From a virus (lineage: Duplodnaviria; Heunggongvirae; Uroviricota; Caudoviricetes): 22,628 nt of DNA. The stretch is from IMG/VR virus record IMGVR_UViG_2861043448_000001. The stretch is one strand, 5' to 3'. The translations under genes and the position numbers were made by a program. Positions 20-18,426 of the stretch are shown in pieces. The notes under the pieces were generated by a model, which worked only from the letters and a program-made list of their open reading frames with translations, was not told where the DNA came from and made no database searches. The first letter of the stretch is position 1. Every line of letters starts with the position of its first letter.

Positions 20-1315
20 TTAATTTTTCATTGCTTCGTTATGGGGCATGGTTGGGGCAAACTCGCTTAACTGTGTATTTAACAAAGCTACCTGTGCATT
101 ATTGTTTTCAGACATCCATTTTCCGTATACCTGAAATACCATTTGCGCATCTGCATGGCCCATCTGGTTTGCTATAAATGCCGGGTTAGCACCAGCTGTC
201 AGCGACCAGCAGGCATAAGTATGTCTCGACTGATATGATTTTCGATGGCGGAGTCCGGCACGTTTTATCGCTGCGTCCCACATCTGCCTTATTGAGTCAA
301 CGGTAAAATGGTCACCATAATTTTTTACTCTCGCTGACACTTCAGGTTGAAAAACAAAGGTGCATTTTTGTTTTTCTGTTCTGCCATACTCTCTGAGGTG
401 AACATCAATGATATGCTCTTTGCTCAGTCTCGTTAATGTCATCTGACTCCGGAGAGCGTCGATTGCTGGCTTAATAAGATGAATGACCCGATTGGTTCCC
501 GCCTGTGTTTTTGGTACCGTGAAACGGTCTTTTGCTAAATTTCTCCTGATCATCATTGTTCCATTTTTCAGATCTATGTCCTCCCATCCAAGTGCACACA
601 GCTCACCAGGGCGAACGCCAGTATAAACAGAAACACACCATAAATTTTTTGCTTGCTGATTTCTGCACGCATCGATAAGACGGATAAATTCTTCCCGCGA
701 AAGAGGATCCGGAATGGTTCTTGATTCCTTTAATGGCGAGATCCCCTTAAACGGATTATCTGCCAGGTAACCGTTATCAACACCAAACTGGAACACGGCG
801 TTAAGATTTGTCATGTAATTATTTACAGTTACAGCCGATCTCCCTGGTTGTGTAACAATATAGTTACTTTTGGGGATCTGGTATCCAGTCAGTAACTCTT
901 TACGAACCTCCAGTAATTTTTCTTTATTAATCGATGAGGCAAGATTTTTTTCACCGATTATGCTCAGGATATTTTTGATGACGGCACGGTATGTGTTGAG
1001 TGATGTTTTGGCGACTTCAGTTTCTTTCAGTGCCAGAAATTTTTCAGCCAGTTCTTTTATGGTTAAATCTTGTCGGGCCTCACCAAATTTTTCCAGATTG
1101 CGTGAGGAGGGAAACTGTTTTGCATAGTCGAAAACACCAGTTTTTATTGCGTAACAAACAGAGGAGCGTAGTTCACCTGCAACGCGCCTGTTTTTTGCTG
1201 TGTCAGGAACCCCCAGGTTTTCCCTGACTCTTACGCCTTTATAAACAAACCAGATACGTAATTTCCCTCCATGGTTTTCCACGCCTGTCGGATATTTCAT
1301 TTCAACTTCTCTCAT
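20..1315 (-). CDS. int: tyrosine-type phage integrase
   Basis: 431-aa ORF; C-terminal catalytic box ...SRHTYACWSLTAGANPAFIANQMGHADAQMVFQVYGKW (R-H-x-x-R ... H ... Y) typical of lambda-family integrases. The second in-frame ATG (MKYPTG, about nt 1300) has a purine-rich SD-like GAGAGAAG upstream and may be the real start. Confidence 0.9.
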   Translation of the reverse strand: MREVEMKYPTGVENHGGKLRIWFVYKGVRVRENLGVPDTAKNRRVAGELRSSVCYAIKTGVFDYAKQFPSSRNLEKFGEARQDLTIKELAEKFLALKETEVAKTSLNTYRAVIKNILSIIGEKNLASSINKEKLLEVRKELLTGYQIPKSNYIVTQPGRSAVTVNNYMTNLNAVFQFGVDNGYLADNPFKGISPLKESRTIPDPLSREEFIRLIDACRNQQAKNLWCVSVYTGVRPGELCALGWEDIDLKNGTMMIRRNLAKDRFTVPKTQAGTNRVIHLIKPAIDALRSQMTLTRLSKEHIIDVHLREYGRTEKQKCTFVFQPEVSARVKNYGDHFTVDSIRQMWDAAIKRAGLRHRKSYQSRHTYACWSLTAGANPAFIANQMGHADAQMVFQVYGKWMSENNNAQVALLNTQLSEFAPTMPHNEAMKN

Positions 1316-1658: not shown

Positions 1659-4130
1659 TTAAGAATCAGCCTGACTCGGGATCAGTTTTTGCCAGATAAC
1701 TGAAACGTATTTTGCCTGGTAACGGGCGTCATCAAGTGCATTATGGCGCTCACCTTCGAATTGAATAGCCGTTCTGGCATCGAAGTCTATGACTTTCCCC
1801 AGCTCAACGATTGTGCGTACATCGCGATCGTTGTAGTAACGCCACGGGCAGGGGATCCCCTGCCGTTCGTATGAACGGCGCAAAATCGTGTTGTCGAAGT
1901 TGGCTCCATTCCCCCAAACCTGAACAAAAAATTCACCGGAGTTTTCGTCGATAAATTCCCGCAATTGTAACAGTGCATCATCTAACGGGATTTCATCGGT
2001 CATAATGGCAGATTGCGCTTCGCGTGATTGCTTAAGCCACCATTTAATGGTGTCCCGATCAATGACTCCGCCAGCAGTTTCCAGATCGATAGTCTTACTA
2101 AATTCCGGTCCCATATCTCCGGTTTGCGGATCGAAAAATATTGCACCTATTGAGGTGATCGGGGCATCAGGATTTTTTCCCATGGTTTCAAGGTCGATCA
2201 TTAGATGGTCACACGTCCTGCTGGTGGATGTGATTTCGTGATGACCGTTCACCTTAATTGGGTGATCTGCCGTCTCGCCAGTTTCATTATCGCTATTGTG
2301 ATGCTGATTGCCGCCAGTGTTCTCCTTGTGTGGATGTTCAGCGCCTTCCATTTCCTCCGGATCATCTTCCTGAACTTCAACCTGATACTCTTCATCGAAT
2401 GTTTCTTGGTATGTTGCGTCGCCCATCACCGCGCCACAATCAGGGCAGTTGCCGCCGCCGGTCTGACCGCAGGCGGTGCAGACTTTTTCCACTTCCTGTT
2501 GCGCTACTGGTTCAGGCTGTTTCGTTTCTGGCTCGTTTTGTAACGCATTTGGACTGTTTTGTTCCGCTTTTTGGTAGTTCCGTTCCGATTCATGCTGGTT
2601 CTGGTTCACAGAATCGCGGGTCTGGATCCCCTTAACCCATTTCGGATCATTCGGGTCACTAATCCCTTCAACAAATTCACCACGTGATGCAGCAAGCAAC
2701 TTATCAGCGTCAGGCTGGCTGATATTGGCTGCCTGCATAATTTTGTTTACTTCGTCAGCGGTAACTTTTATCGGCTCTGGTTGTTCTGAATCTTCAGCGG
2801 TATCTACATTTTGCGGTAAGCCCGTGTATGTGCCATTTTTTCGGGCAAAATATTCTTCTTTTGTGATTTCAGTGGCGCCAGCAGCCAGTGCCTTATCCAG
2901 ACCAGAAAGTTTGTTTGCGCGACCGTATTTTTCTCCGTCCTTATCTGCGAAGAGGAAATAGAACGGCCCCTCACGCTCTACAGATGGTTCAGCTTCCGGC
3001 GCGGTTTCATTTTTTGGGATATCAGATACCTCAGTTTCCACTGCATCAGTTTGTGTTTCTGATGACTGGAGAACATCAACAGTGCCCAGGTCTGTTTCTT
3101 CATTCTCAAACACGCCCTTTGTCGTCAGGTATTCGCAGATATATTTGTTCAGTGCTACGGGATCTTTGTGAATGTCGATCGGACGCTCACGGACAAGGCC
3201 AAAAATAGTTTGGCGGTCGTAGCGAAGGGCATCAGGCTGTTTGCGCATTGATGCCGAGATACGCTTCCAGTCTTCGCGGTCGTTGTCGATAACTTCTTTT
3301 TTTGCCCAGCGATGGATGCTGCCGTCAATGTTTCCGGCATCCACATCACCAGGCCAGAGAGCGTAGGCCAGTTCGTCATCCAGTGTTTTCCATGTCTGCT
3401 TGTATTCGCGATGAATGGCAGCAATGACCGGGCTGATTTTTCCTGTTGAATTTTCAGTGTACTGTTGATTGGCTCTGGCGCGTGCGAGATCAACAACAGA
3501 CGTGTATTTTCCGGTTTCCTTGCGTTCACCTTCGCGACGTTTTTTCCAGATGCGCATCTCTGCCTGAATTTCGGGCCATTTAGCACCAGGAATACATTTA
3601 TGCTTAACCCACCCAATGGCGTGCAACTTAAGCTCCGGATACATGGCGTTAACTTCTGGCATTTTCATCAACGCTTCAACGATATGTCCGTCGAATGTTG
3701 CCATGTCTTCCTGCAACAATTCCTGTGCGCTAATAACCATATCAACGGTGATGTTTTCACATGTGTCGAACTTAACCATGACAGCGTTCTGTACTTCAGG
3801 GGCCAGCTTGTCAAAAGTGACGTTCATCGGATCGGATTCAGTCTCAACCGGGACAAAAGAAGCAGACTCCTCATCCCAGCGGTTTTCCTGCATATATTCA
3901 GCATCCCATGAATCGAGGGCAGGGCGGGGTATGCCAGGTTTATCCTCGCAGACAATAAATTTATAAGCGCAGTCCTGAGCAGCCGGATAATGTTCCAGGA
4001 ATTGCCAGTGAAATTTTGCTCGAGCACGGCGTTCGTCGCCAGCTTCAATGGCTGTGGCTACAGCCACAGCGCCTTCTTCCCTTGTTGCCAGTTCGTCAGG
4101 AATAGCGGCGCAAATAAAGACTTTACTCAT
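1659..4130 (-). CDS. large prophage exonuclease (exodeoxyribonuclease VIII-like) with C-terminal DEDD-type 3'-5' exonuclease domain
   Basis: 823-aa ORF. C-terminal about 180 aa carry DnaQ-like motifs (MIDLETMG ... HNALDDARY). Central acidic low-complexity linker and a C-x2-C-x7-C-x2-C zinc-ribbon-like cluster (CTACGQTGGGNCPDCG). A mid-region segment (DKLLAASRGEFVEGISDPNDPKWVKGIQTRD) seems to match my recollection of RecE, which I cannot verify. Confidence 0.75.
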   Translation of the reverse strand: MSKVFICAAIPDELATREEGAVAVATAIEAGDERRARAKFHWQFLEHYPAAQDCAYKFIVCEDKPGIPRPALDSWDAEYMQENRWDEESASFVPVETESDPMNVTFDKLAPEVQNAVMVKFDTCENITVDMVISAQELLQEDMATFDGHIVEALMKMPEVNAMYPELKLHAIGWVKHKCIPGAKWPEIQAEMRIWKKRREGERKETGKYTSVVDLARARANQQYTENSTGKISPVIAAIHREYKQTWKTLDDELAYALWPGDVDAGNIDGSIHRWAKKEVIDNDREDWKRISASMRKQPDALRYDRQTIFGLVRERPIDIHKDPVALNKYICEYLTTKGVFENEETDLGTVDVLQSSETQTDAVETEVSDIPKNETAPEAEPSVEREGPFYFLFADKDGEKYGRANKLSGLDKALAAGATEITKEEYFARKNGTYTGLPQNVDTAEDSEQPEPIKVTADEVNKIMQAANISQPDADKLLAASRGEFVEGISDPNDPKWVKGIQTRDSVNQNQHESERNYQKAEQNSPNALQNEPETKQPEPVAQQEVEKVCTACGQTGGGNCPDCGAVMGDATYQETFDEEYQVEVQEDDPEEMEGAEHPHKENTGGNQHHNSDNETGETADHPIKVNGHHEITSTSRTCDHLMIDLETMGKNPDAPITSIGAIFFDPQTGDMGPEFSKTIDLETAGGVIDRDTIKWWLKQSREAQSAIMTDEIPLDDALLQLREFIDENSGEFFVQVWGNGANFDNTILRRSYERQGIPCPWRYYNDRDVRTIVELGKVIDFDARTAIQFEGERHNALDDARYQAKYVSVIWQKLIPSQADS

Positions 4131-4926: not shown

Positions 4927-5872
4927 ACGCCCACTGGTTATAAACACGCAGCTGGCAATGAAAATTGGCTTAAACGAAGCCATTGTTTTGCAACAACTGC
5001 ACTACTGGTTGAGAGATACCAACTCCGGCATGGAATGTGATGGTGTTCGCTGGATTTATAACACAACGGAACAATGGCTGGAACAGTTCCCATTCTGGTC
5101 AGAGTCAACGTTAAAGCGCGCGTTTGCAAGTCTGAAAACGCTGGGGCTTTTGCGTTGTGAAAAGCTCAATAAATCAAAGCGCGATATGACCAATTTCTAC
5201 ACGATCAACTACGGGAGCGAGCTTTTAGATGGTGGCAAATTGAGCGAATCCATCGGTTTAAAATGCGCCGCTCCATCAGGTCAAAATGACACGATGGAAG
5301 AGGTCAAAATGAAACGCTCCATTGGTTCAAAACGACTCAATGTCATCGGGTCAAAATGGCCTGATGATCTTACAGAGAATACAACAGAGATTACTACAGA
5401 GAATAAAAAGACTTCTCGTCCGGAAGCTTCGCAACCGGACCCGCAGACGGTTGAACAGGATTTTTTAACCCGACACCCTGACGCGGTTGTGTTCAGTGCG
5501 AAAAAACGCCAGTGGGGCAGCCAGGAAGATTTGGCGTGTGCGCAGTGGATCTGGGGGCGAATCGTGAGTCTTTACGAGCAGGCCGCCAGCGATGATGGCG
5601 AGATTTCGCGACCGAAAGAACCCAACTGGACCGCATGGGCCAACGACGTGCGCACAATGCGGATGCTGGATGGCAGAACTCACAGACAAATTTGTGAAAT
5701 GTTTGGTCGGGTGCAGCGGGATCCATTCTGGGTAAAAAATATCATGAGTCCGTCAAAGCTTCGCGAAAAATGGGATGAACTGGTTATCCGCCTGGGGCGT
5801 TCGTCTGTACAGCGTTGTGTGAATCATATTTCTGAGCCGGATACCGAAATTCCGCCGGGCTTCAGGGGGTAA
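4907..5872 (+). CDS. phage replication initiation / replisome-organiser protein with DnaT-like C-terminal domain
   Basis: N-terminal HTH-like region (RPLVINTQLAMKIGLNEAIVLQQLHYWL...), linker with amino-acid repeats, C-terminal region (ACAQWIWGRIV...WTAWANDVRTMRMLDGRTHRQICEMFG...DPFWVKNIMSPSKLREKWDEL) resembling primosomal DnaT C-terminal domains. ATG at 4907 is preferred over the upstream TTG at 4853. Confidence 0.75.
   Translation: MSLLFAERPLVINTQLAMKIGLNEAIVLQQLHYWLRDTNSGMECDGVRWIYNTTEQWLEQFPFWSESTLKRAFASLKTLGLLRCEKLNKSKRDMTNFYTINYGSELLDGGKLSESIGLKCAAPSGQNDTMEEVKMKRSIGSKRLNVIGSKWPDDLTENTTEITTENKKTSRPEASQPDPQTVEQDFLTRHPDAVVFSAKKRQWGSQEDLACAQWIWGRIVSLYEQAASDDGEISRPKEPNWTAWANDVRTMRMLDGRTHRQICEMFGRVQRDPFWVKNIMSPSKLREKWDELVIRLGRSSVQRCVNHISEPDTEIPPGFRG
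5371..5406. repeat. three tandem 12-bp iteron-like repeats (NNACAGAGAWTA) in the replication-gene linker
   Basis: ttACAGAGAATA caACAGAGATTA ctACAGAGAATA, encoding TENTTEITTEN; position is analogous to lambda ori inside gene O. Confidence 0.3.
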
Positions 5873-5912: not shown

Positions 5913-6335
5913 GTGGCAAAAGTTTTTACACAAGAAGAGCGGGAAAAAATTAAAGGGCAGGTTGTTGAACTCGTACGCCGGAGTGGGCGTGAGACGTTAC
6001 GGCAACTGGAAGTCAAGACAGGTGCGACAAGATATCTGATGAGCGTTCTCGCAAGAGAGCTGGTTGCCAGCGGCGATGTATACAACTCTGGTTACGGGTT
6101 ATTCCCGTTTGAACAGGCGCGTAAGGACTGGCAAAATGCCCGTAAAAAGCTCTCAAGGGCAAAGCTGAAGGAACCATCTGCGGTTGATCCGGACCTTATC
6201 TGGTCATTACCTGACGGAGAAATACGTCGTTACGACAGGCGTCATAATATGATTTGTACTGAGTGTCGTAAAAGCGAAGTTATGCAGCGCATATTGTCGT
6301 TTTATCAGGGGGATGTCCGGTATTTATTGAAGTGA
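5913..6335 (+). CDS. hypothetical protein (140 aa)
   Basis: GTG start 5 nt after a strong SD (CAGGAGGG); no recognisable domain from sequence alone. Confidence 0.6.
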   Translation: MAKVFTQEEREKIKGQVVELVRRSGRETLRQLEVKTGATRYLMSVLARELVASGDVYNSGYGLFPFEQARKDWQNARKKLSRAKLKEPSAVDPDLIWSLPDGEIRRYDRRHNMICTECRKSEVMQRILSFYQGDVRYLLK

Positions 6336-6403
6336 CGAGATTAAAGTGCATTAGTTCAGATGCAAATTGACATTTTGTGGCACAGGGTAGAGCTAGCGTG
6401 GTT

Positions 6404-6427
6404 GTCCGCTTTGTGCCAAGAGCGGAC
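6404..6427. repeat. 24-bp hairpin element, copy 1 (GTCCGCTTTGTGCCAAGAGCGGAC)
   Basis: Near-identical to the copy at 7619-7642; 9-bp stem, 6-nt loop; lies about 40 bp outside the 3' end of the GIY-YIG gene. Confidence 0.5.
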
Positions 6428-6464
6428 TTTGCAAAATGGGGGTTATTTCAATCAAAACGTAACG

Positions 6465-7409
6465 TCACAACCAGCCGACGCTCTCTCGCCATTTATAATT
6501 AGTAACTTTATCATTTTCGCTTATTTTTTTAGATATAGAGCGCGGCTCTCTTCCTAGATACTCAGATATTTCTATCGGGGACAAATCAAAATCAACAAGC
6601 ATGACTCTAAGTTTTTCCATTTCCTTTAAAGTCCAAGGCTTGCCATAATTTTCATAAAGAGATACCTTATGCTCCCTGATAGTTCGCTTTCTCTGAGTTT
6701 CACTTTCCCTCTGAAAAATCTCGCTTTTAAATTGTGAACGGAACTCTTTACAGAAGTTGTTATCAGTTTTTTTGTTATATAGATTGCTAAAAATAAGCTG
6801 GGATGCCGGGTCTAAATCAGGTGTGTTAATAATGAAAACTTTGACCTTTTCCATATAGGGATATTCAATTTTACCCAATATGCTTAATTGCTTTATATTA
6901 AAAAAACCTCTCAAATCAAAAGATTTAATGAGCTTTGATTGGATTACACTTTCAATCCTGCTTGCATTTAAATAACAGTACTTTGCCATTGGAAGGGCCC
7001 ATACTACCAGTTGAGGAATATATTTTTCTAATGCAATGCTCTGCCAATCAGTATCAAAGGTTTGGCTTTTTGCTAGCATGTTTTTCGGCAAATCAGAATA
7101 CATTGTGGTAGATGCCCATATCTTATAATCATTCGCCAAGGCTTGATAGTATTTTGTGTGGTTATGAATTTTATAAGCTGACATGAAGCGATAAACGTCT
7201 TCGTCGTGACCAGCGTCGTAAATTGTTCGATTTCCTCTAAGATAACCGTCGTAATGTTCGGTTATCCTTCTACCTACATTACAACTTACCCCAACGTAAA
7301 CCACACGACTGAAAAGTCCTTTATGGACAATAAGATAAACTCCGCTACAGCCAGATTTCCTGGCCTCTGATAGAGAACCTAAAAATCTCCATTCCATAAT
7401 TAAATCCAT
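6465..7409 (-). CDS. GIY-YIG nuclease-domain protein (314 aa) with uncharacterised C-terminal region
   Basis: N-terminus CSGVYLIVHKGLFSRVVYVGVSCNVGRRITEHY fits GIY-x(about 12)-YVG ... R ... E spacing of GIY-YIG nucleases. The gene is markedly AT-rich compared with flanking phage genes. Confidence 0.75.
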   Translation of the reverse strand: MDLIMEWRFLGSLSEARKSGCSGVYLIVHKGLFSRVVYVGVSCNVGRRITEHYDGYLRGNRTIYDAGHDEDVYRFMSAYKIHNHTKYYQALANDYKIWASTTMYSDLPKNMLAKSQTFDTDWQSIALEKYIPQLVVWALPMAKYCYLNASRIESVIQSKLIKSFDLRGFFNIKQLSILGKIEYPYMEKVKVFIINTPDLDPASQLIFSNLYNKKTDNNFCKEFRSQFKSEIFQRESETQRKRTIREHKVSLYENYGKPWTLKEMEKLRVMLVDFDLSPIEISEYLGREPRSISKKISENDKVTNYKWRESVGWL

Positions 7410-7579
7410 AATTATTGCTACTGTTTTTGTTTATCATTATTTTCGTGAAACTTCAACAATTTTATCCAAAAGCTAAGGGCAAAGACTTATATAATTATAC
7501 TTGTCATCGTTAGCGATTATATAGAGTAGTGGCGCTGACCTGCTCCCTGGTGATTCACACAGAATGCTGTTAGTAATGT

Positions 7580-7642
7580 CCGTTCCTCGCTCTCAGCGGA
7601 CCTTCAGCTCAGTGATATCGTCCGCTCTGTGCAAAGAGCGGA
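7580..7642. repeat. two tandem hairpin elements (GTCCGTTCCTCGCTCTCAGCGGAC and GTCCGCTCTGTGCAAAGAGCGGAC)
   Basis: Second unit is a perfect 9-bp stem with 6-nt loop and matches the copy at 6404-6427; located in the 547-bp spacer between the GIY-YIG gene and the 449-aa gene. A further CCGCTCT-containing imperfect dyad occurs near 7760-7790. Confidence 0.45.
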
Positions 7643-7956
7643 CGTTGGTATGCAAGAGCCCTCCAAAAGTTGATGGTTGGTTTGCAGGGGGGCTTAAAGA
7701 AACTGCACTTATCAAGTTGAAGTTCTGTATTCAGCGAAATCGTAGCACTCTGACGATAAGTAACTCCGGTACTCCGCTCTTCGATGAAGAACCAGAGTAA
7801 TCCCCCCGAAAAACCAGCGCATCAAAATTGGATCTTCAGCGGTAGCTTATCGGCTATCGGAAGTACAGGTGTGGATTCGTGGTGAATTGCTTTGATAATA
7901 AACGATTAATACGGAAAAACGCATTAATCATTTATTAGCTTTTAGTAAACCACAAT

Positions 7957-9306
7957 TTATTCCGTTTTACATATCATAGTAGTCGATTGGAGAATATAGT
8001 TTCTGGGAATGTACTCTTCAAAGTGTTCGTCCTTTTTAAATACATGAACTACATTTGGGAATAATTGATAGTCAACAGGGTGTATAGCGTTTGGATTATG
8101 GTACATGTACATGGCTGTACACCATGGTTCTTGATAGTTAGGGTCACTTACATCGGCTGAAAATGGATGTGGGGCTGCATCCTGATCAGTTTTAACACCA
8201 CTGACGTACACTTTGAATCCACTCGCCTCTACACCTGCAAGAATTCCCATCCGGTTAAACTTAGGTATGGTTGCTTGAGTAGTGAGTAAAACGGCAGAAA
8301 CATAATTATTTTGTTCTGAGCCAAAAAAGTTCGACTTGATACTTCTATTTTCATCTGTATGTCTTTCAATAGAAATGCCTGACTCAATATCAATCCCGTA
8401 CAAATAGCTATGCAAGGCTTCGCTTGAGAAGGCCATGGACATTCTTTTTGAATAATCCTGCATTGCTATGACAAATGGTTTGTTCTTTGTATGGTTGAGT
8501 TCCCAGTAATGAACTTTCTCTGGCTCAGGGCAATGCCGGACTTTTTTTAATAAACTTCTTGCAAACTTAAAAGGCATGACATTTAGAACATGTTTTCTTA
8601 ATTCATCCATCTGTTCATCGTTAATGACTTTTCTTTCAAGAGGGGCTTCTGCTTCAGCAATGCTTACAGCCTCTACAGCAATTTCCACTCCAAATTTAGA
8701 TAGCAGAAAATCTGGTTGATTGTATTCTCTATTCATTTCAAAGTCGAGTTCATAAAATACAGCGTTCAAATATAATTCAAATAACCTTGAATTAAATGCA
8801 TCACTTTGAAAATCCCTTATAAATATTCCATCAGGATCTTTGAACCAGTATGCAAGTTCCTCAAGAACAATATATGCAGGGAAATGAAGAGGGTCTTCGA
8901 GGAGCATTTTTATATAAACATTCCTTTTTTTCGCTGGGACCTTACTCAAGAATAATGAAAAAGGTTTGGTTGATTCATCGCCTTGCATGAATGTACCATT
9001 TTGGTGCTGCGCCAGCATCTTTGGTATGTCATCGTTCAAATTATTAAGCAAGACATCCATTGAATCAAATGAAGCCAAGACGTTTATTGCTCTGAATTTT
9101 TTATCTAAATCCCGACCTAAGACTATTGCGTTAAAATCTTTATCAATATTGCATATGATTATTGTGGATAACAATGTTATCCCATTCCCCTCATATTTAA
9201 ACCAGCGTATCTCCTCAGAAAATGTCTTAAGGTAAGGTGAGCGACCGTAAAAATAAATATCAAATTGTTCTTTGCTGATCTCACTGAAGTGTAATCCTGC
9301 GTTCAT
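7957..9306 (-). CDS. hypothetical protein (449 aa), no recognisable domain
   Basis: Long intact ORF with AAGGA SD 7-11 nt upstream of the ATG; AT-rich; same strand as the adjacent GIY-YIG gene. Confidence 0.7.
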   Translation of the reverse strand: MNAGLHFSEISKEQFDIYFYGRSPYLKTFSEEIRWFKYEGNGITLLSTIIICNIDKDFNAIVLGRDLDKKFRAINVLASFDSMDVLLNNLNDDIPKMLAQHQNGTFMQGDESTKPFSLFLSKVPAKKRNVYIKMLLEDPLHFPAYIVLEELAYWFKDPDGIFIRDFQSDAFNSRLFELYLNAVFYELDFEMNREYNQPDFLLSKFGVEIAVEAVSIAEAEAPLERKVINDEQMDELRKHVLNVMPFKFARSLLKKVRHCPEPEKVHYWELNHTKNKPFVIAMQDYSKRMSMAFSSEALHSYLYGIDIESGISIERHTDENRSIKSNFFGSEQNNYVSAVLLTTQATIPKFNRMGILAGVEASGFKVYVSGVKTDQDAAPHPFSADVSDPNYQEPWCTAMYMYHNPNAIHPVDYQLFPNVVHVFKKDEHFEEYIPRNYILQSTTMICKTE

Positions 9307-9428
9307 ACCAATTCCTTTTCAATGAATAATTGGCCTTTAGGAGTGATTCCCTTTGTCTTTAATTCAGTTCTAACTAGTTCTTTAATCCAATAGCCTAAGC
9401 TCATCATGCAGTTGGATCATAAGACAAC

Positions 9429-9457
9429 GCCCTATAGTGCTCGTGATACTATAGGGC
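9429..9457. promoter_or_regulatory. perfect 10-bp inverted repeat with 9-bp spacer (GCCCTATAGT-gctcgtgat-ACTATAGGGC)
   Basis: Seen directly in the divergent region between the 449-aa gene and the recombinase gene; geometry resembles an operator or recombinase core site. Confidence 0.35.
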
Positions 9458-9590
9458 ATCTGACCACACTGTTAACTGGAGTAACGACTATGGCAGGAAT
9501 ACAGCATAACCAAACTCACCCCAAACTTACATAGCGCTTTCTGGCCGTGAGCATAACAAGGTCCACTCCTCGCTCATAAGGGACAACCAT

Positions 9591-9623
9591 ACTCAAATCT
9601 CCCACATTGCAGGAGATTTGAGT
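9591..9623 (+). promoter_or_regulatory. perfect 12-bp stem-loop sequestering the recombinase ribosome-binding site
   Basis: ACTCAAATCTCC-cacattgca-GGAGATTTGAGT; the AGGAG SD (9611-9615) lies in the loop/3' arm junction and the ATG (9624) follows immediately. Confidence 0.45.
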
Positions 9624-10226
9624 ATGAACACGTCACCGTGGAACAAAGACCGTATCATAGGCCAAAAAAGACCACTTCAGATATCTCATATCTGGGGTAT
9701 CCGAATCCGACTTGAACTGGAAGGTAAAACTCGCGATTTAGCTCTGTTCAACATGGCCCTGGATAGTAAGCTTCGAGGCTGTGATCTGGTCAAACTCAAA
9801 GTATCTGATGTTGCATATGGTGGCTCTGTTTCAAGCAGAGCAACGGTGTTGCAACAGAAAACCGGTAGCCCTGTTCAATTTGAGATAACCAAAGGGACAA
9901 GAGAAGCTGTTGCTGCATTGATACAGCTTAGCAATTTGCACAGTAAAGACTTCTTGTTTCGGTCTAGGGTCGGAACTAACCAGCACATTTCAACCCGGCA
10001 ATACAACCGAATCTTTCATGGGGGGGTAGAAAAGCTTGGTCTCGAAGATTCGCTTTACAGCACACATTCCATGAGAAGAACAAAACCTTACCTGATCTAC
10101 AAGAAAACCAAGAATCTCCGGGTGATCCAACTTCTGTTGGGTCATAAGAAACTGGAAAGCACAGTCCGTTATCTGGGCATTGAAGTCGATGATGCGTTAG
10201 AGATTTCTGAATCGATTGAAGTCTAA
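9624..10226 (+). CDS. small tyrosine recombinase, catalytic domain only (FimB/FimE-sized, 200 aa)
   Basis: Catalytic signature ...LRGCD (Arg-I) ... HSMRRT ... LLGH ... TVRYL (Tyr nucleophile). No N-terminal arm-binding domain. The track ORF begins at TTG 9618; ATG 9624 with AGGAG 8 nt upstream is preferred. Confidence 0.8.
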   Translation: MNTSPWNKDRIIGQKRPLQISHIWGIRIRLELEGKTRDLALFNMALDSKLRGCDLVKLKVSDVAYGGSVSSRATVLQQKTGSPVQFEITKGTREAVAALIQLSNLHSKDFLFRSRVGTNQHISTRQYNRIFHGGVEKLGLEDSLYSTHSMRRTKPYLIYKKTKNLRVIQLLLGHKKLESTVRYLGIEVDDALEISESIEV

Positions 10227-10585
10227 GGTTGTCAGGGCTGCAACAGCAGCCCTGTGCCATAAGCGGAAGTATTTAACAACTATCAGTGTTGTTCAACAGA
10301 TAAAGGGGCACTTGATTTTTTCTGTTCTCAGGAAATGATAAAAGCGCGTCGGTTCAAGCCTGCTTAACGGGAGTTTGTTAATCCTGTTGCCGTGACGTTT
10401 TGACACCATTATGATGGGGAGACACTTAATGTATGAAGGTTCCGCCACTTATACCTGTCCAACAACTGCCTCGGATGTTTCTTTGTATGAATAAGTGGTA
10501 ATGAGTAGTGAATCGCTAACAGTCACCCGAACAATCGGTGCCTGCAATTAATTCTATATTCTAAACGAGGGGGAGATTATTACAC

Positions 10586-11566
10586 ATGAAATTTAAGGAC
10601 AAGAACCTTAAGGCTCTCGCGGAATGTATCATAGGAGATAATAAGGCATTTCTGTATCGTTCAAGCAGTCACATCACTGAATTTTTCCAGGACTGCGGCA
10701 TGGATGTTACTCATGACGGATCCACTCGGTGGAAATGGACGGCCCAGAGGCTTGAAGAACTTCTTTATGAGCCACAGTCAAAGCCACATACTTTGCCGGA
10801 AAGGTTTGTTCATGTGCTCAGAACTTTAATGTTAAAAGAAGATGCAATGGATGACGATCCAGGAAGATTAAAGGCGCTTGAAGAACTGAACAAGCCTTTG
10901 ATGCGGGAAGGCTATGAGGCATTCTATGGTGACGATCGCCTTTTGTATATACGCCATACCGATACCAAAACGGTTTCAGTCAGTAATAACCCTCATCGGC
11001 CCTTAACGCCTCACGAAGTAGAATGCAGAAGGTTACTGACCGCGTTTCTTGATACCTGCTCAGAAGATGAGTTAATAGAAGATATTCTCCTTCCTTTATT
11101 CCGGCAACTTGGTTTTCACCGGATAACAGCAGTGGGACATAAAGATAAAGCGCTGGAATACGGGAAAGACATCTGGATGAAGTTCACACTGCCAACTCAG
11201 CATGTTCTTTATTTCGGCATTCAGGCAAAAAAAGGTAAGTTGGATGCGTCCGGTGCCAGCAAATCTACGAATTCAAACGTGGCAGAAATCTTCAACCAGG
11301 TACTGATGATGCTTGGCCATGAAATATTTGACCCAGAAACAAATAGAAAGGTGCTGGTAGATCATGCCTTTATCGTTGCTGGCGGAGAAATTACTAAACA
11401 GGCGAGGAACTGGCTGGGCGGGAAACTTGATGCCAGCAAAAGAAGCCAGATAATATTTATGGACCGGGAAGACATTCTTAATTTATATACTGTAAGTAAT
11501 GTACCTCTGCCAACAGGTGCTCTCATCTCTGATGATGCCGTTAAGAACGATGATATTCCTTTCTAA
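10586..11566 (+). CDS. protein with C-terminal Mrr-like PD-(D/E)xK nuclease motif and unknown N-terminal domain (326 aa)
   Basis: Strong SD (GAGGGGGAG). C-terminal half ...HRITAVGHKDKALEYGKDIWMKF...LYFGIQAKKG... resembles the Mrr catalytic core (D ... Q-x-K). Confidence 0.7.
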   Translation: MKFKDKNLKALAECIIGDNKAFLYRSSSHITEFFQDCGMDVTHDGSTRWKWTAQRLEELLYEPQSKPHTLPERFVHVLRTLMLKEDAMDDDPGRLKALEELNKPLMREGYEAFYGDDRLLYIRHTDTKTVSVSNNPHRPLTPHEVECRRLLTAFLDTCSEDELIEDILLPLFRQLGFHRITAVGHKDKALEYGKDIWMKFTLPTQHVLYFGIQAKKGKLDASGASKSTNSNVAEIFNQVLMMLGHEIFDPETNRKVLVDHAFIVAGGEITKQARNWLGGKLDASKRSQIIFMDREDILNLYTVSNVPLPTGALISDDAVKNDDIPF

Positions 11567-11993
11567 TCAGAAGTACGTCTTTTTCTGAAAGAATACGTGA
11601 TAGGTAGCCACACCACACCTTTAGTGACCCCTTAATCTGGTAATATAACAGCCCGTATGAATGTCCGCGGCATCGCGGGCTGAAATTTATTAAAAATACT
11701 TATTCATCAAGCTGGAGTAGTTTGCCGAGTAACTGTAAACGCCCAACTTAACCGGACCATTCACTTTTAGATTGCTACCAGCAAACCAACTTCCGTTTCT
11801 CGCTCAAAGCGGACTAGAAGGTTAGCTTGCGTCGGACTTGGCGTATTTAAAGAAGTGCTGGTGGTAACTGGTTGTTGTGTTCCATTTCTACAAAACAAAA
11901 TCACAGAAACTATACCCAATAGTTATATTGAATCAATGATGAGACAGCCTCATATTTATCAGAACTGGTGTACGTCCAATACAGGAGGTTGTC

Positions 11994-12083: not shown

Positions 12084-12237
12084 TTTTATATTGGCGAGGT
12101 GACGGGAGTTAAGTAGAATTGCTGCGGGTGCTTGAGGCTATCTGCCTCAGGCATGAACACCAAAGGCAGATAGAGAAAAGCCCCAGTTAACATTACGCGT
12201 CCTGCAAGACGTTTAACATTAATCTGAGGCTCAATCT

Positions 12238-12450
12238 ATGAACGGCAAATCTAGGTTAGCCTCTTACGTGCCGAAAGGCAAGGAGAAGCAGGCTATGAAG
12301 CAGCAAAAGGCGATGTTAATCGCCCTGATCGTCATCTGTTTAACCGTCATAATGACGGCACTGGTAACGAGGAAAGACCTCTGCGAGGTACGAATCCGAA
12401 CCGGCCAGACGGAGGTCGCTGTCTTCACAGCTTACGAACCTGAGGAGTAA
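12238..12450 (+). CDS. hok: Hok/Gef family type I toxin with in-frame Mok leader (hok proper = 12295..12450)
   Basis: MKQQKAMLIALIVICLTVIMTALVTRKDLCEVRIRTGQTEVAVFTAYEPEE is a near-match to Hok/Gef toxins; in-frame upstream extension from ATG 12238 as in chromosomal mok; candidate promoter TTGGCG-17-TAGAAT about 12097-12125. Confidence 0.85.
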   Translation: MNGKSRLASYVPKGKEKQAMKQQKAMLIALIVICLTVIMTALVTRKDLCEVRIRTGQTEVAVFTAYEPEE

Positions 12451-16263: not shown

Positions 16264-18426
16264 ATGAAATCCATGGACAAAATTTCAACGGGCATTGCCT
16301 ATGGCACCTCCGCAGGCAGTGCTGGCTACTGGTTTTTACAGCTGCTCGATAAAGTCACGCCCTCACAGTGGGCAGCAATAGGTGTGCTGGGTATCCGCAC
16401 CGGCGGGCGCGTGCTGGCGGTAAACAGCCAGACCCGGACGCTGACGCTCGACCGTGAAATCACGCTGCCATCTTCCGGCACCACGCTGATAAGCCTGGTT
16501 GACGGGCAGGGGAGTCCGGTCAGCGTGGAGGTTCAGTCCGTCACCGACGGCGTGAAGGTGAAAGTGAGCCGTGTTCCTGACGGCGTTGCTGAATACAGCG
16601 TATGGGGGCTGAAGCTGCCGACGCTGCGCCAGCGCCTGTTCCGCTGCGTGAGTATCCGTGAGAACGACGACGGCACGTATGCCATCACCGCCGTGCAGCA
16701 TGTACCGGAAAAAGAGGCCATCGTGGATAACGGGGCGCACTTTGACGGCGACCAGAGCGGCACGGTAAATGGTGTCACGCCGCCAGCGGTGCAGCACCTG
16801 ACCGCAGAAGTCACCGCAGACAGCGGGGAATACCAGGTGCTGGCCCGCTGGGACACGCCGAAGGTGGTGAAGGGCGTGAGCTTCCTGCTTCGCCTGACCG
16901 TGGCAGCGGATGACGGCCGTGAGCGGCTGGTCAGCACGGCCCGGACGACGGAAACCACTTACCGCTTCACACAACTGGCTCTGGGGAACTACAGGCTGAC
17001 AGTCCGGGCAGTAAATGCGCGGGGGCAGCAGGGCGATCCGGCGTCGGTATCGTTCCGGATTGCCGCACCGGCAGCGCCGTCGCGGATTGAGCTGACGCCG
17101 GGCTATTTTCAGATAACCGCCACGCCGCATCTTGCGGTTTATGACCCGACGGTACAGTTTGAGTTCTGGTTCTCGGAAAAACGGATTGCGGATATCAGGC
17201 AGGTTGAAACCAGCGCGCGTTATCTTGGTACGGCACTGTACTGGATAGCCGCCAGTATCAATATCAAACCGGGCCATGATTATTATTTTTACGTTCGCAG
17301 TGTGAACACCGTTGGCAAATCGGCATTCGTGGAGGCTGTCGGTCAGCCGAGTGATGATGCATCAGGCTATCTGGATTTTTTCAAAGGCGAGATAGGGAAA
17401 ACCCATCTGGCTCAGGAGCTGTGGACGCAGATTGATAACGGTCAGCTTGCGCCTGACCTGACTGAAATCAGGACGTCCATAACGGATGTCAGCAATGAAA
17501 TAACACAGACCGTCAATAAGAAACTGGAAGACCAGAGTGCAGCGATCCAGCAGATACAGAAGGTTCAGGTTGATACAAATAATAACCTGAACAGCATGTG
17601 GGCAGTGAAGCTGCAGCAGATGCAGGACGGACGCCTTTATATTGCGGGTATCGGTGCCGGTATTGAGAACACCCCTGACGGCATGCAGAGTCAGGTGCTG
17701 CTGGCAGCAGACAGGATTGCGATGATTAATCCTGCGAATGGCAACACAAAGCCGATGTTTGTTGGTCAGGGCGATCAGATATTCATGAATGAAGTGTTCC
17801 TGAAACGCCTGACGGCCCCCACCATTACCAGCGGCGGTAATCCTCCGGCATTTTCCCTGACATCAGACGGGAGACTGACGGCGAAAAATGCGGATATCAG
17901 TGGCAGTGTGAATGCGAACTCAGGAACGCTCAACAATGTCACGATTAACCAGAACTGTACGATTAAGGGCATGCTGGAGGCGACCCAGGTCAGAGGAGAT
18001 TTCGTTAAAGCTGTATCAAAAGCCTTCCCGAAAAAAGTCGGTACGTGGGGTAACACGGAAACACCAAACGGTACGGTTACAGTAACCATCAGCGATGATC
18101 ATAACTTTGACCGCCAGATTATTATTCCGCCCATTATTTTTAACGGTATAGCGTATGACGATCCGGGGAGCGGAAATAACCCAGGAGGCACGCGATACAC
18201 GGGTTATGGTTTTGAAGTTCGCAAAAACGGCGTATTAATCGCATCCAGAGAAACTAAAGGGGCCATTCCCGGTAGTTACAGTGCAGTTATTGATATGCCG
18301 AGTGGCAGGGGAAGCGTCACTCTGGAGTTTAAGATTTTCCAGAAAGGCAATCAGGGGGCAGGCAATATCACCGACTGTACGGTGATTGTGACCAAAAAAG
18401 CGGCTTCCGGCATCAGTATTCGTTGA
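16264..18426 (+). CDS. chimeric ORF: class II (phage 21 S-type) holin N-terminus (43 aa) fused in frame to the C-terminal about 677 aa of tail tip host-specificity protein J
   Basis: Residues 1-43 ([26 protein letters not shown]...AAIGVLG) match the phage 21 pinholin N-terminus as recalled; from residue 44 ([20 protein letters not shown]...) to the end the protein is collinear with lambda J from about residue 455. Strong SD (GGAGGTGAGG). Junction at about nt 16392/16393. Confidence 0.8.

Follow-up and report, generated by a model that had tools for sequence, protein, structure and literature searches.

What does a tyrosine recombinase with little besides its catalytic domain do in the middle of prophage cargo, when a full-length integrase is already present at the left end of the prophage? 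This question is raised by the IMG/VR record IMGVR_UViG_2861043448_000001, a stretch of 22,628 nucleotides from a virus of the class Caudoviricetes (the window in the following). It carries a gene, int, for a protein of 200 amino acids (aa). A first, sequence-only reading of the window had proposed that the enzyme inverts or excises a local segment, for example a switch controlling the adjacent nuclease-like gene or an AT-rich cassette. From the comparison of loci presented here, int is probably the recombinase of a gene-cassette platform that uses two heterospecific core sites.

Recombination sites and layout of the array

An array of 5.4 kb (6404-11814) surrounds int and is built with two types of palindromic site, all co-oriented with int. 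Each site has inverted arms of 9 bp, extendable to about 11-13 bp, around an asymmetric spacer of 6 bp (9-6-9). Type T1, with the spacer TCGCTC, is found at 7578, 9561 and 11791 (sites B1, C and D in Table 1), and type T2, with the spacer GTGCCA or GTGCAA, at 6404 and 7620 (A and B2) and as a half-degenerate copy at 10245 (X). The order is T2, a 314-aa gene, T1, an 18-bp linker, T2, the anti-phage gene PD-T7-1, T1, int, T2, a 326-aa gene and T1. A cassette extends from the right arm of a T2 site through its cargo to the left arm of a T1 site, and a connector from the right arm of a T1 site through the linker or the int gene to the left arm of a T2 site.

The two arms of a site belong to different units. 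In site A the left arm and the spacer are constant prophage backbone and the right arm is part of cassette 1; in site D the spacer and the right arm are constant backbone. The left arm of site C belongs to cassette 2, and its spacer and right arm to the recombinase module. Site X is the right limit of the conserved module, with a degenerate inner arm and an outer arm that belongs to cassette 3. It is overlapped by a stem-loop, an arrangement that recurs in the loci L002-L004 and L008-L018.

The gene-less composite of B1, linker and B2 (66 bp) occurs in 636 of 5426 Escherichia coli genomes and is never annotated; the linker CTTCAGCTCAGTGATATC is identical in L002 and L003. A single strand of the composite folds as two separate hairpins and not as one long stem. 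An open reading frame (ORF) of 78 aa at 7564-7800 (+) crosses B1 and B2; it has no family match and is probably not a gene.

We scanned 21 Enterobacterales loci (382 kb) with a strict pattern in which arms and spacer were both specified. This gave 85 sites against 0.06 in shuffled sequences, 78 on the int strand and 7 on the other. In order to avoid circularity, the arms alone were also searched with the spacer left free. A total of 81 sites was found where 1.3 were expected, and 64 of these carried either TCGCTC (33) or GTGCCA (31); the remainder were nearly all one-base variants of the two spacers, and inverted forms numbered only three. The loose frame GTCC-N16-GGAC stayed at chance level (7 found, 6.4 expected); the signal needs the arms or the spacers to be specified. 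A loose pattern for the site variant of Pseudomonas was too noisy in GC-rich DNA for array mapping.

The start of a T1 site and that of the following T2 site are 39-42 bp apart in 13 of 16 cases, about 683 bp in two (the int module) and 25 bp in one, while T2-to-T1 distances are 653-6163 bp (the cargo). Therefore, cargo always runs from T2 to T1 and connectors from T1 to T2.

A deviating form was seen in L004 (around 8000), in two copies in L018, and downstream of int in L028, L036 and L063, where the outer arm beside the spacer is replaced by CTGTGTGAAAAC or its complement. This sequence may represent an alternative arm or the terminus of some other element.

Cassette exchange between genomes

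The locus between the DUF977 gene and hokD was compared in seven E. coli genomes. Its left side always reads '...gtggtt GTCCGCTTT GTGCCA' and its right side always 'TCGCTC AAAGCGGAC tagaaggttagcttg', continuing with tagaagg. In these seven genomes the left arm and spacer of site A meet six different right arms and cargos, and the constant sequence on the right is preceded by six different cargo-specific left arms. The contents are the three cassettes of the window with int; PD-T7-1 alone; AbiH with a 465-aa gene; a 224-bp, internally deleted remnant of the AbiH cassette; an FRG/PDC-S15 gene; two hypothetical genes; and a large ORF with an int pseudogene and a HEPN gene.

Individual cassettes can be followed into other surroundings. 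In strain GPEC60-33-648 (L088) the match covers exactly 7620-9584 of the window at 99.6% identity, within a Qin-like phage whose flanks are only 86-90% identical. The sites at its two ends are recombinant, one consisting of the A left arm, GTGCCA and the B2 right arm, and the other of the C left arm, TCGCTC and the D right arm. In strain 2013C-3033 (L089) the 314-aa cassette (6402-7592) is 99.2% identical and is part of a CP4-like island that also carries Ag43 and a YeeP-type GTPase. Here the B1 left arm and TCGCTC join the cassette straight to the int-proximal right arm and the int module, the product expected if T1xT1 recombination deleted the PD-T7-1 cassette. Furthermore, L002 equals L003 with a Drt1a cassette added between two identical T2 sites.

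Constant and variable sequence meet at most one base from the 6-bp spacers, and every observed joint is like-with-like, T1xT1 or T2xT2. Where a cassette is found in two contexts, its orientation to the sites is unchanged. The stretch of identity between partner sites is only about 7-10 contiguous bases long, with the spacer at its centre (about 8 for C and D), and about 8 shared bases are too few for RecA-dependent homologous recombination. This favours a site-specific mechanism over homologous recombination.

An alternative worth weighing is that palindromic, terminator-like repeats recombine by ordinary homology or a Red-type pathway, with no site-specific system involved. The sites form GC-rich hairpins, the length of the 66-bp composite would suffice for a short homology patch, and recombination functions are encoded by lambdoid phages, here for example the exonuclease at 1659-4130. 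Against this stand the short identity of recombined partners with its centre on the spacer, and the finding that the arms on either side of the spacer go with different partners in every comparison. Moreover, there are just two spacer classes, each in one orientation, in a layout typical of the core site of a tyrosine recombinase and with the gene of such an enzyme embedded. We regard recombination by homology as very unlikely. The T-sites, judged from these alignments, very probably delimit cassettes that are exchanged by site-specific recombination.

The recombinase

The ORF of int corresponds to the RefSeq coding sequence WP_023147793.1, annotated as 'site-specific integrase' in E. coli chromosomes that are 100% identical. 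The ATG at 9624 is preferred over the listed TTG at 9618 as start codon, because it is placed 8 nt past a GGAG (9612-9615). The only Pfam match is PF00589 with 63.9 bits (cut-off 27.1), aligned over residues 35-184 to profile positions 21-166 of 172, so that at most about 15-20 residues precede the catalytic domain. The N-terminal arm-binding and core-binding domains of a lambda-type integrase were looked for, and int has no N-terminal domain. The description of the protein as a catalytic-domain-only tyrosine recombinase thus agrees with the profile match and with the catalytic set R51, K79, H148-x-x-R151, H174 and Y183.

H148, R151, H174 and Y183 line up with the HxxR...H...Y residues of XerD. 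In family alignments of 14 and 50 sequences, R51, K79, H148, H174 and Y183 are invariant and R151 nearly so (at least 90%). The catalytic residues and an N-terminal PWNK...GQK.P motif are kept at 59-95% identity across Gamma- and Betaproteobacteria; this motif and the final 30 residues hardly vary. Of at least 8000 homologue clusters, the best 120 range from Enterobacterales to Idiomarina and Pseudoalteromonas, nearly all with a length of 194-203 aa and an identity of 77-95%. A library clustered at 50% identity gave 526 clusters at E<=1e-30, with full-length members of 198-211 aa. At 80 loci in Gamma- and Betaproteobacterial genomes the proteins have the same length and are 60-98% identical, and the complete E. 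coli copies examined are all 603 bp, save two annotated with internal stops.

Could int be a functionless relic, the degraded 3' part of a phage integrase that was once full-length? It is situated in a defective prophage full of pseudogenes, and the allele of the window has the substitution W134G. The thousands of homologues of the same length (196-211 aa) with a conserved N-terminus speak against a remnant, as does the strong conservation implied by 59-64% protein identity between Enterobacterales and Burkholderiales. The sequence-only reading had itself named upstream homology to integrase N-terminal domains as the sign of a remnant. Upstream of int there is instead a recombination site, and beyond 9561 the promoter side of the PD-T7-1 cassette, which is replaced by another, unrelated cassette in other genomes. 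We give the remnant next to no chance; on the comparison of homologues, 200 aa is the native length and int is not a fragment. The K-12 gene intK/ydfW was tried as a remnant of int and rejected, as tblastn gave no match.

All curated subfamily models score int far below their cut-offs. The NCBIfam models for XerC and XerD give 44.7 bits (cut-off 335) and 27.6 bits (330), and XerA and XerS are likewise far below. The invertase models NF007371 and NF007370 give 27.5 bits (E=2e-6) and 19.2 bits with cut-offs of 222 and 221, and the integron integrase models TIGR02249 and NF011946 give 17.2 and 17.6 bits with cut-offs of 265 and 435. Therefore, we consider int to represent a distinct family with a FimB-like minimal architecture.

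The sequence-only reading had likened int to FimB/FimE-type invertases or cassette recombinases. An invertase of this kind would flip a short local segment, such as 10227-10585 or its own module, as a switch for the neighbouring gene. Size and domain content are as in FimB and FimE, and the weak invertase match has been given above. The int-flanking sites are exact inverted copies of each other in Pseudomonas-type relatives, and inversion may occur in that clade. In the window, on the other hand, the flanking spacers TCGCTC and GTGCCA are not inverted copies of each other, the invertase profiles do not support membership, and the strand bias of the strict scan and the constant orientation of cassettes both oppose inversion. 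A search of 9.3-10.6 kb for inverted repeats found no meaningful pair around 10227-10585; the best pair was 71% complementary and spans the 326-aa gene. Both orientations were expected in populations, and 180 assemblies have one arrangement apart from insertion sequence (IS) insertions, with the module a single aligned piece among the matches listed. An invertase is accordingly highly improbable here. Of the original proposal, the mobilisation of cassettes holds up, with the same cassettes present elsewhere and crossovers at the spacers, and the inversion switch finds no support, with the sites in direct orientation.

Association of the recombinase with the sites

A module of about 700 bp (window ~9562 to ~10270) was found at 90-94% identity in 932 of the 5426 complete E. 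coli genomes, in varied neighbourhoods. It starts in a T1 and ends in a T2 site, with both ends inside the short palindromes. The same placement of int between T1 and T2, in the same orientation, was found in E. coli, Buttiauxella, Pectobacterium, Pantoea, Phytobacter, Klebsiella, Erwinia, Leclercia and Providencia. Additionally, the motif GCCANNAGCGG of the downstream T2 site occurs 28-70 nt (mostly 28-45) past the stop codon in 27 of 80 family loci, compared with 2.4% of control windows, and is kept beside homologues that are only 60-65% identical.

Another enzyme, such as host XerCD or a different integrase, might use real T1 and T2 sites, with Int as cargo or in a role such as the resolution of array dimers. 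Many arrays are without int, and the link from Int to the sites is one of association. It would then have to be explained why int is always within T1...T2 in the same orientation in many genera, and why the downstream motif is kept beside distant homologues. Int itself is neither a Xer protein nor an integron integrase, as those models score far under cut-off. The sites (arms GTCCGCT/AGCGGAC, spacers TCGCTC/GTGCCA) do not appear to resemble the dif consensus. Use of the sites by another enzyme is unlikely in our judgement, and we consider it quite probable that the Int family is the enzyme acting on the T-sites.

In Pseudomonas-type loci (L036, L040, L049, L051 and others) the upstream site of int exactly matches the reverse complement of the downstream one (CCGCTTCTGGCCGGTTAGCGAC). 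Both spacers thus have one and the same sequence in opposite orientation and are not heterospecific, and inversion of the module would be possible in this clade.

Among the carriers are lambdoid prophages, plasmids, CP4-like islands and 68 viral contigs of IMG/VR. In P2-like phages of Yersinia and E. coli a T2-cargo-T1 cassette is present, and after it comes a stump of the int module, 74 bp long (window 9570-9643). The stump begins exactly at the T1 spacer in phages and plasmids alike. In Yersinia phage vB_YpM_22 (L090, 2650-4075), for example, the cassette is located just upstream of the tail-sheath gene FI. We take this to be the Z/fun position of P2.

The arrays of CP4-like islands (L002 at 12660, L003 at 16479-16544, L089 at 10349) end with T1, CTTCAGCTCAG and a T2-like left arm and spacer (GGCCGCTTC ATGCAA), the right arm of which is island backbone. 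This end site may be the original docking site.

Proposed mechanism

Int dimers would bind the arms and exchange strands across the spacer, which would restrict recombination to T1xT1 or T2xT2. Two like sites in one array could then recombine to release a circle with one cargo and one connector, and re-insertion of the circle at any T1 or T2 would lengthen an array. Insertion at one type of site followed by deletion at the other would replace a cassette, a natural form of recombinase-mediated cassette exchange (RMCE). The heterologous spacers would bar the simple loss or inversion of a single cassette by T2xT1 recombination.

The start of int is enclosed in a hairpin that pairs both the GGAG Shine-Dalgarno sequence and the ATG. 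Equivalent hairpins precede the gene across the family, with stem sequences that differ between clades. Each 5' region was folded separately and compared with controls, a weaker form of evidence than covariation. In 62 of 73 family regions the minimum-energy fold (mean -12.2 kcal/mol) pairs the Shine-Dalgarno sequence; the same is true of 152 of 306 control genes (-8.8 kcal/mol), and of 64% once the upstream sequence has been shuffled (-6.7 kcal/mol). RNAalifold on a MAFFT alignment of 41 upstream regions returned no consensus pairs, with the loops not aligned. In IS10 and IS50, fold-back inhibition guards against translation from read-through transcripts. By analogy, we infer that the hairpin protects int from being translated from such transcripts; it would normally block translation, and read-through from the cargo would leave the enzyme off.

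Evidence against the platform and state of the window copy

Several observations weigh against a working platform, or against the part of Int in it. With the strict scan, the alternation of sites is broken by 16 T1-to-T1 and 5 T2-to-T2 neighbour pairs, at least some of which are due to degenerate partner sites that the scan misses, as with site X. The single arrangement mentioned above holds for all 180 genomes with this exact array, save for IS insertions. The excised circle was not found, and none of 18 short contigs had a circular overlap. Recombination itself is read from the comparison of assembled sequences, and the assignment of the enzyme to the sites is by association only. A promoter scan gave no sigma-70-like promoter for int. 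The predicted structure is of low confidence, with a predicted local distance difference test score (pLDDT) of 29.7 from the single sequence and 54.1 from the 50-sequence alignment, too poor for a structure-based fold search to be usable.

Many copies of int are damaged or missing. It is annotated as a pseudogene with an internal stop in L089 and L095, it is cut to 74 bp in the P2-like phages and in several hundred plasmids, mostly from Klebsiella, and many arrays are without it (L005, L088, L092-L094). Hence activity has to be infrequent or provided in trans. In the window, codon 134 (10023-10025) is GGG (Gly), where seven relatives checked have TGG (Trp), a residue at least 90% conserved in the family. 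The T-to-G change makes a G7 run at 10020-10026 and is common to all 180 genomes, which are of the sequence type 410 (ST410) kind. With W134G and no rearrangement in these genomes, the window copy may have little or no activity, or events may just be infrequent; that it is active now seems doubtful to us.

Some of the cargo likewise weighs against the platform. Nine of 20 cargo proteins tested were without a PADLOC match, and some cargo, by eye, is metabolic or for transport and not for defence (major facilitator superfamily transporters, NUDIX, TonB/ABC genes).

Cargo of the cassettes

The cargo is rich in anti-phage genes. Across the loci it includes PD-T7-1, Drt1a, a LeoBC-like dynamin, HEC-08, AbiH, a helicase, a ThsA-like SIR2, SIR2 with HerA, a dGTPase and PDC-S15. 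The anti-phage activity of PD-T7-1 has been validated experimentally (Vassallo et al. 2022, PMC9519451). For the 326-aa neighbour of int nothing was found in Pfam, NCBIfam, PADLOC or PDB, and its earlier label as 'Mrr-like' is unverified.

In the Qin prophage of K-12 MG1655 (L007), flxA is located between a T2 site and a slightly degenerate T1 site with the spacer TTGCTC (5147-5170 and 6138-6161), and is for this reason cassette cargo. Compared with the window, the flxA cassette is inverted relative to hokD.

Within the PD-T7-1 cassette of the window, ~7815-7895 (+) encodes the C-terminal fragment of an AlpA-like helix-turn-helix gene, annotated by RefSeq as 'partial' in some genomes. A perfect 10-bp palindrome, GCCCTATAGT-N9-ACTATAGGGC (9430-9458), is found upstream of PD-T7-1. 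It overlaps the best promoter-like site on the minus strand, 9448-9475 (-), with 10 of 12 matches, and looks like an operator over the PD-T7-1 promoter.

Prophage setting and feature table

The window is 100% identical to ST410-type E. coli chromosomes. The setting is a Qin-type lambdoid prophage with rspB on one side and ydfJ on the other; its holin, tail-tip, Lom and tail-fibre genes are all truncated, and it is therefore defective. From the left, the genes are the full-length integrase, xis, the exonuclease, dicB, replication genes and the DUF977 gene; after the cargo block follow hokD/sok, rem, a Q-like antiterminator, tRNAs and the truncated late genes. The integrase at the left end (20-1315, minus strand) was rightly called full-length: it carries the arm-binding domain Arm-DNA-bind_2 (Pfam) that the small recombinase does not have. 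The AT-rich cassette region described earlier is likewise found, with a GC content of 0.34-0.39 across 6.5-9.5 kb. The sok antisense RNA accompanies hokD at 12126-12300 (Rfam, 111.7 bits), and an Rfam scan of 6-12.6 kb gave nothing except sok. A cluster of tRNA-Ile, tRNA-Thr and tRNA-Gly genes is located downstream of hokD, to ~16000. The features of the array are collected in Table 1.

Table 1. Coordinates of sites, genes and hairpins of the array in the window.
Feature	Position	Strand	Sequence or product	Remark
Site A (T2)	6404..6427	+	GTCCGCTTT GTGCCA AGAGCGGAC	left terminus of array
Cassette 1 cargo	6465..7409	-	314-aa protein	weak GIY-YIG match (E=0.017, under cut-off)
Site B1 (T1)	7578..7601	+	GTCCGTTCC TCGCTC TCAGCGGAC	
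Linker, 18 bp	7602..7619	+	CTTCAGCTCAGTGATATC	with B1 right arm and B2 left arm, gene-less connector
Site B2 (T2)	7620..7643	+	GTCCGCTCT GTGCAA AGAGCGGAC	perfect 9-bp arms; left limit of PD-T7-1 cassette match
Cassette 2 cargo	7957..9306	-	PD-T7-1 anti-phage protein, 449 aa	PADLOC PDLC04073, E=7e-157
Site C (T1)	9561..9584	+	GTCCACTCC TCGCTC ATAAGGGAC	module homology begins 9562-9570
Hairpin ahead of int	9588..9626	+	CATACTCAAATCTCC / GGAGATTTGAGTATG, perfect, 15 bp, 9-nt loop	9588-9602 pairs 9612-9626; z = -5.5
int	9624..10226	+	catalytic-domain-only tyrosine recombinase, 200 aa	ORF without stops; PF00589; RefSeq match
Stem-loop	10234..10268	+	CAGGGCTGC-AACA-GCAGCCCTG	overlaps site X
Site X (T2)	from 10245	+	AGCAGCCCT GTGCCA TAAGCGGAA	module homology ends 10259-10275
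Cassette 3 cargo	10586..11566	+	326-aa protein of unknown family	
Site D (T1)	11791..11814	+	TTCCGTTTC TCGCTC AAAGCGGAC	right terminus of array

Comparison with known systems

Integrons are similar in that a tyrosine recombinase adjoins an array of cassettes, most with one or a few genes, each of them between short imperfect palindromes. In both, the number of cassettes varies and arrays without integrase are known (compare the clusters of attC sites lacking integron integrases, CALINs), and cargo rich in anti-phage genes is a feature of sedentary chromosomal integrons too. Discrete cassettes are exchanged at sites in both, and the resemblance is functional only. The enzyme of 200 aa is by its scores not IntI and has no room for the IntI-specific insertion. 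The sites are two heterospecific 9-6-9 core sites and not attC, with two small hairpins in place of the long attC stem; a GTTRRRY core was not noted on reading the sites, for which no pattern scan was made. The arrays are without an attI site or the organisation around a cassette promoter (Pc). Cassettes are found on both sides of int, in either coding orientation and up to 6 kb long, which makes a single common promoter unlikely.

The pdif (dif) modules of Acinetobacter plasmids are mobilised by host XerC/XerD. They are also discrete modules between short tyrosine-recombinase core sites that alternate in type or orientation, and the same module is found in different replicons. Here, the recombinase is self-encoded in a connector and is not XerC/XerD by the scores given above, and T1 and T2 differ in their spacers and not in orientation alone, with a sequence that appears unrelated to dif.

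The invertases FimB and FimE, of about 200 aa, share a catalytic domain with almost no N-terminal extension and short core sites without arm sites. They differ from the present system, in which similarity to them is marginal, no invertible segment exists, the sites are direct, and cassettes are gained, lost or replaced instead of a promoter being flipped.

In the R64 shufflon, Rci (about 384 aa) acts on inverted sfx sites, gives inversion only and rearranges the 3' ends of one gene. Several asymmetric sites in one locus are common to both systems. Rci is set apart by its length, and here the sites are mostly direct and the cassettes whole genes. The sfx core GTGCCAA resembles the T2 spacer GTGCCA(A), which is a lead and not a test.

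Finally, in engineered RMCE with heterospecific lox or FRT pairs, a segment between two sites with incompatible spacers is swapped for one with the same pair. The arrangement described here is natural, with an enzyme family and sites of its own and arrays of several cassettes.

Our literature search found no description of the sites, the module or the system; subscription journals were sparsely covered, and absence from what was searched is not proof. On balance, we lean towards an undescribed and widespread cassette-exchange platform of Gamma- and Betaproteobacteria, which moves anti-phage and other genes among prophages, P2-like phages, islands and plasmids.

Significance

The mechanism by which defence hotspots exchange their genes has been stated to be unknown, with recombination at cos ends only a speculation (Rousset et al. 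2022, PMC9122126), and 'integrase-only' defence islands have been listed with their mobilisation unclear (Hochhauser et al. 2023, PMC10121019). For the turnover of defence genes at hotspots, the exchange points can here be read from the sequence and a candidate enzyme is encoded on the spot. If true, this would be a mechanism for part of the unexplained hotspot turnover and for 'integrase-only' defence islands. Any sequence between T2 and T1 is candidate cargo, provided that the model is right. A recombinase of 200 aa with two natural, non-cross-reacting 24-bp sites would also, if confirmed, be an attractive compact tool for cassette exchange. For the recombinase family itself, the hairpin over the ribosome binding site suggests a safeguard of the transposon type.

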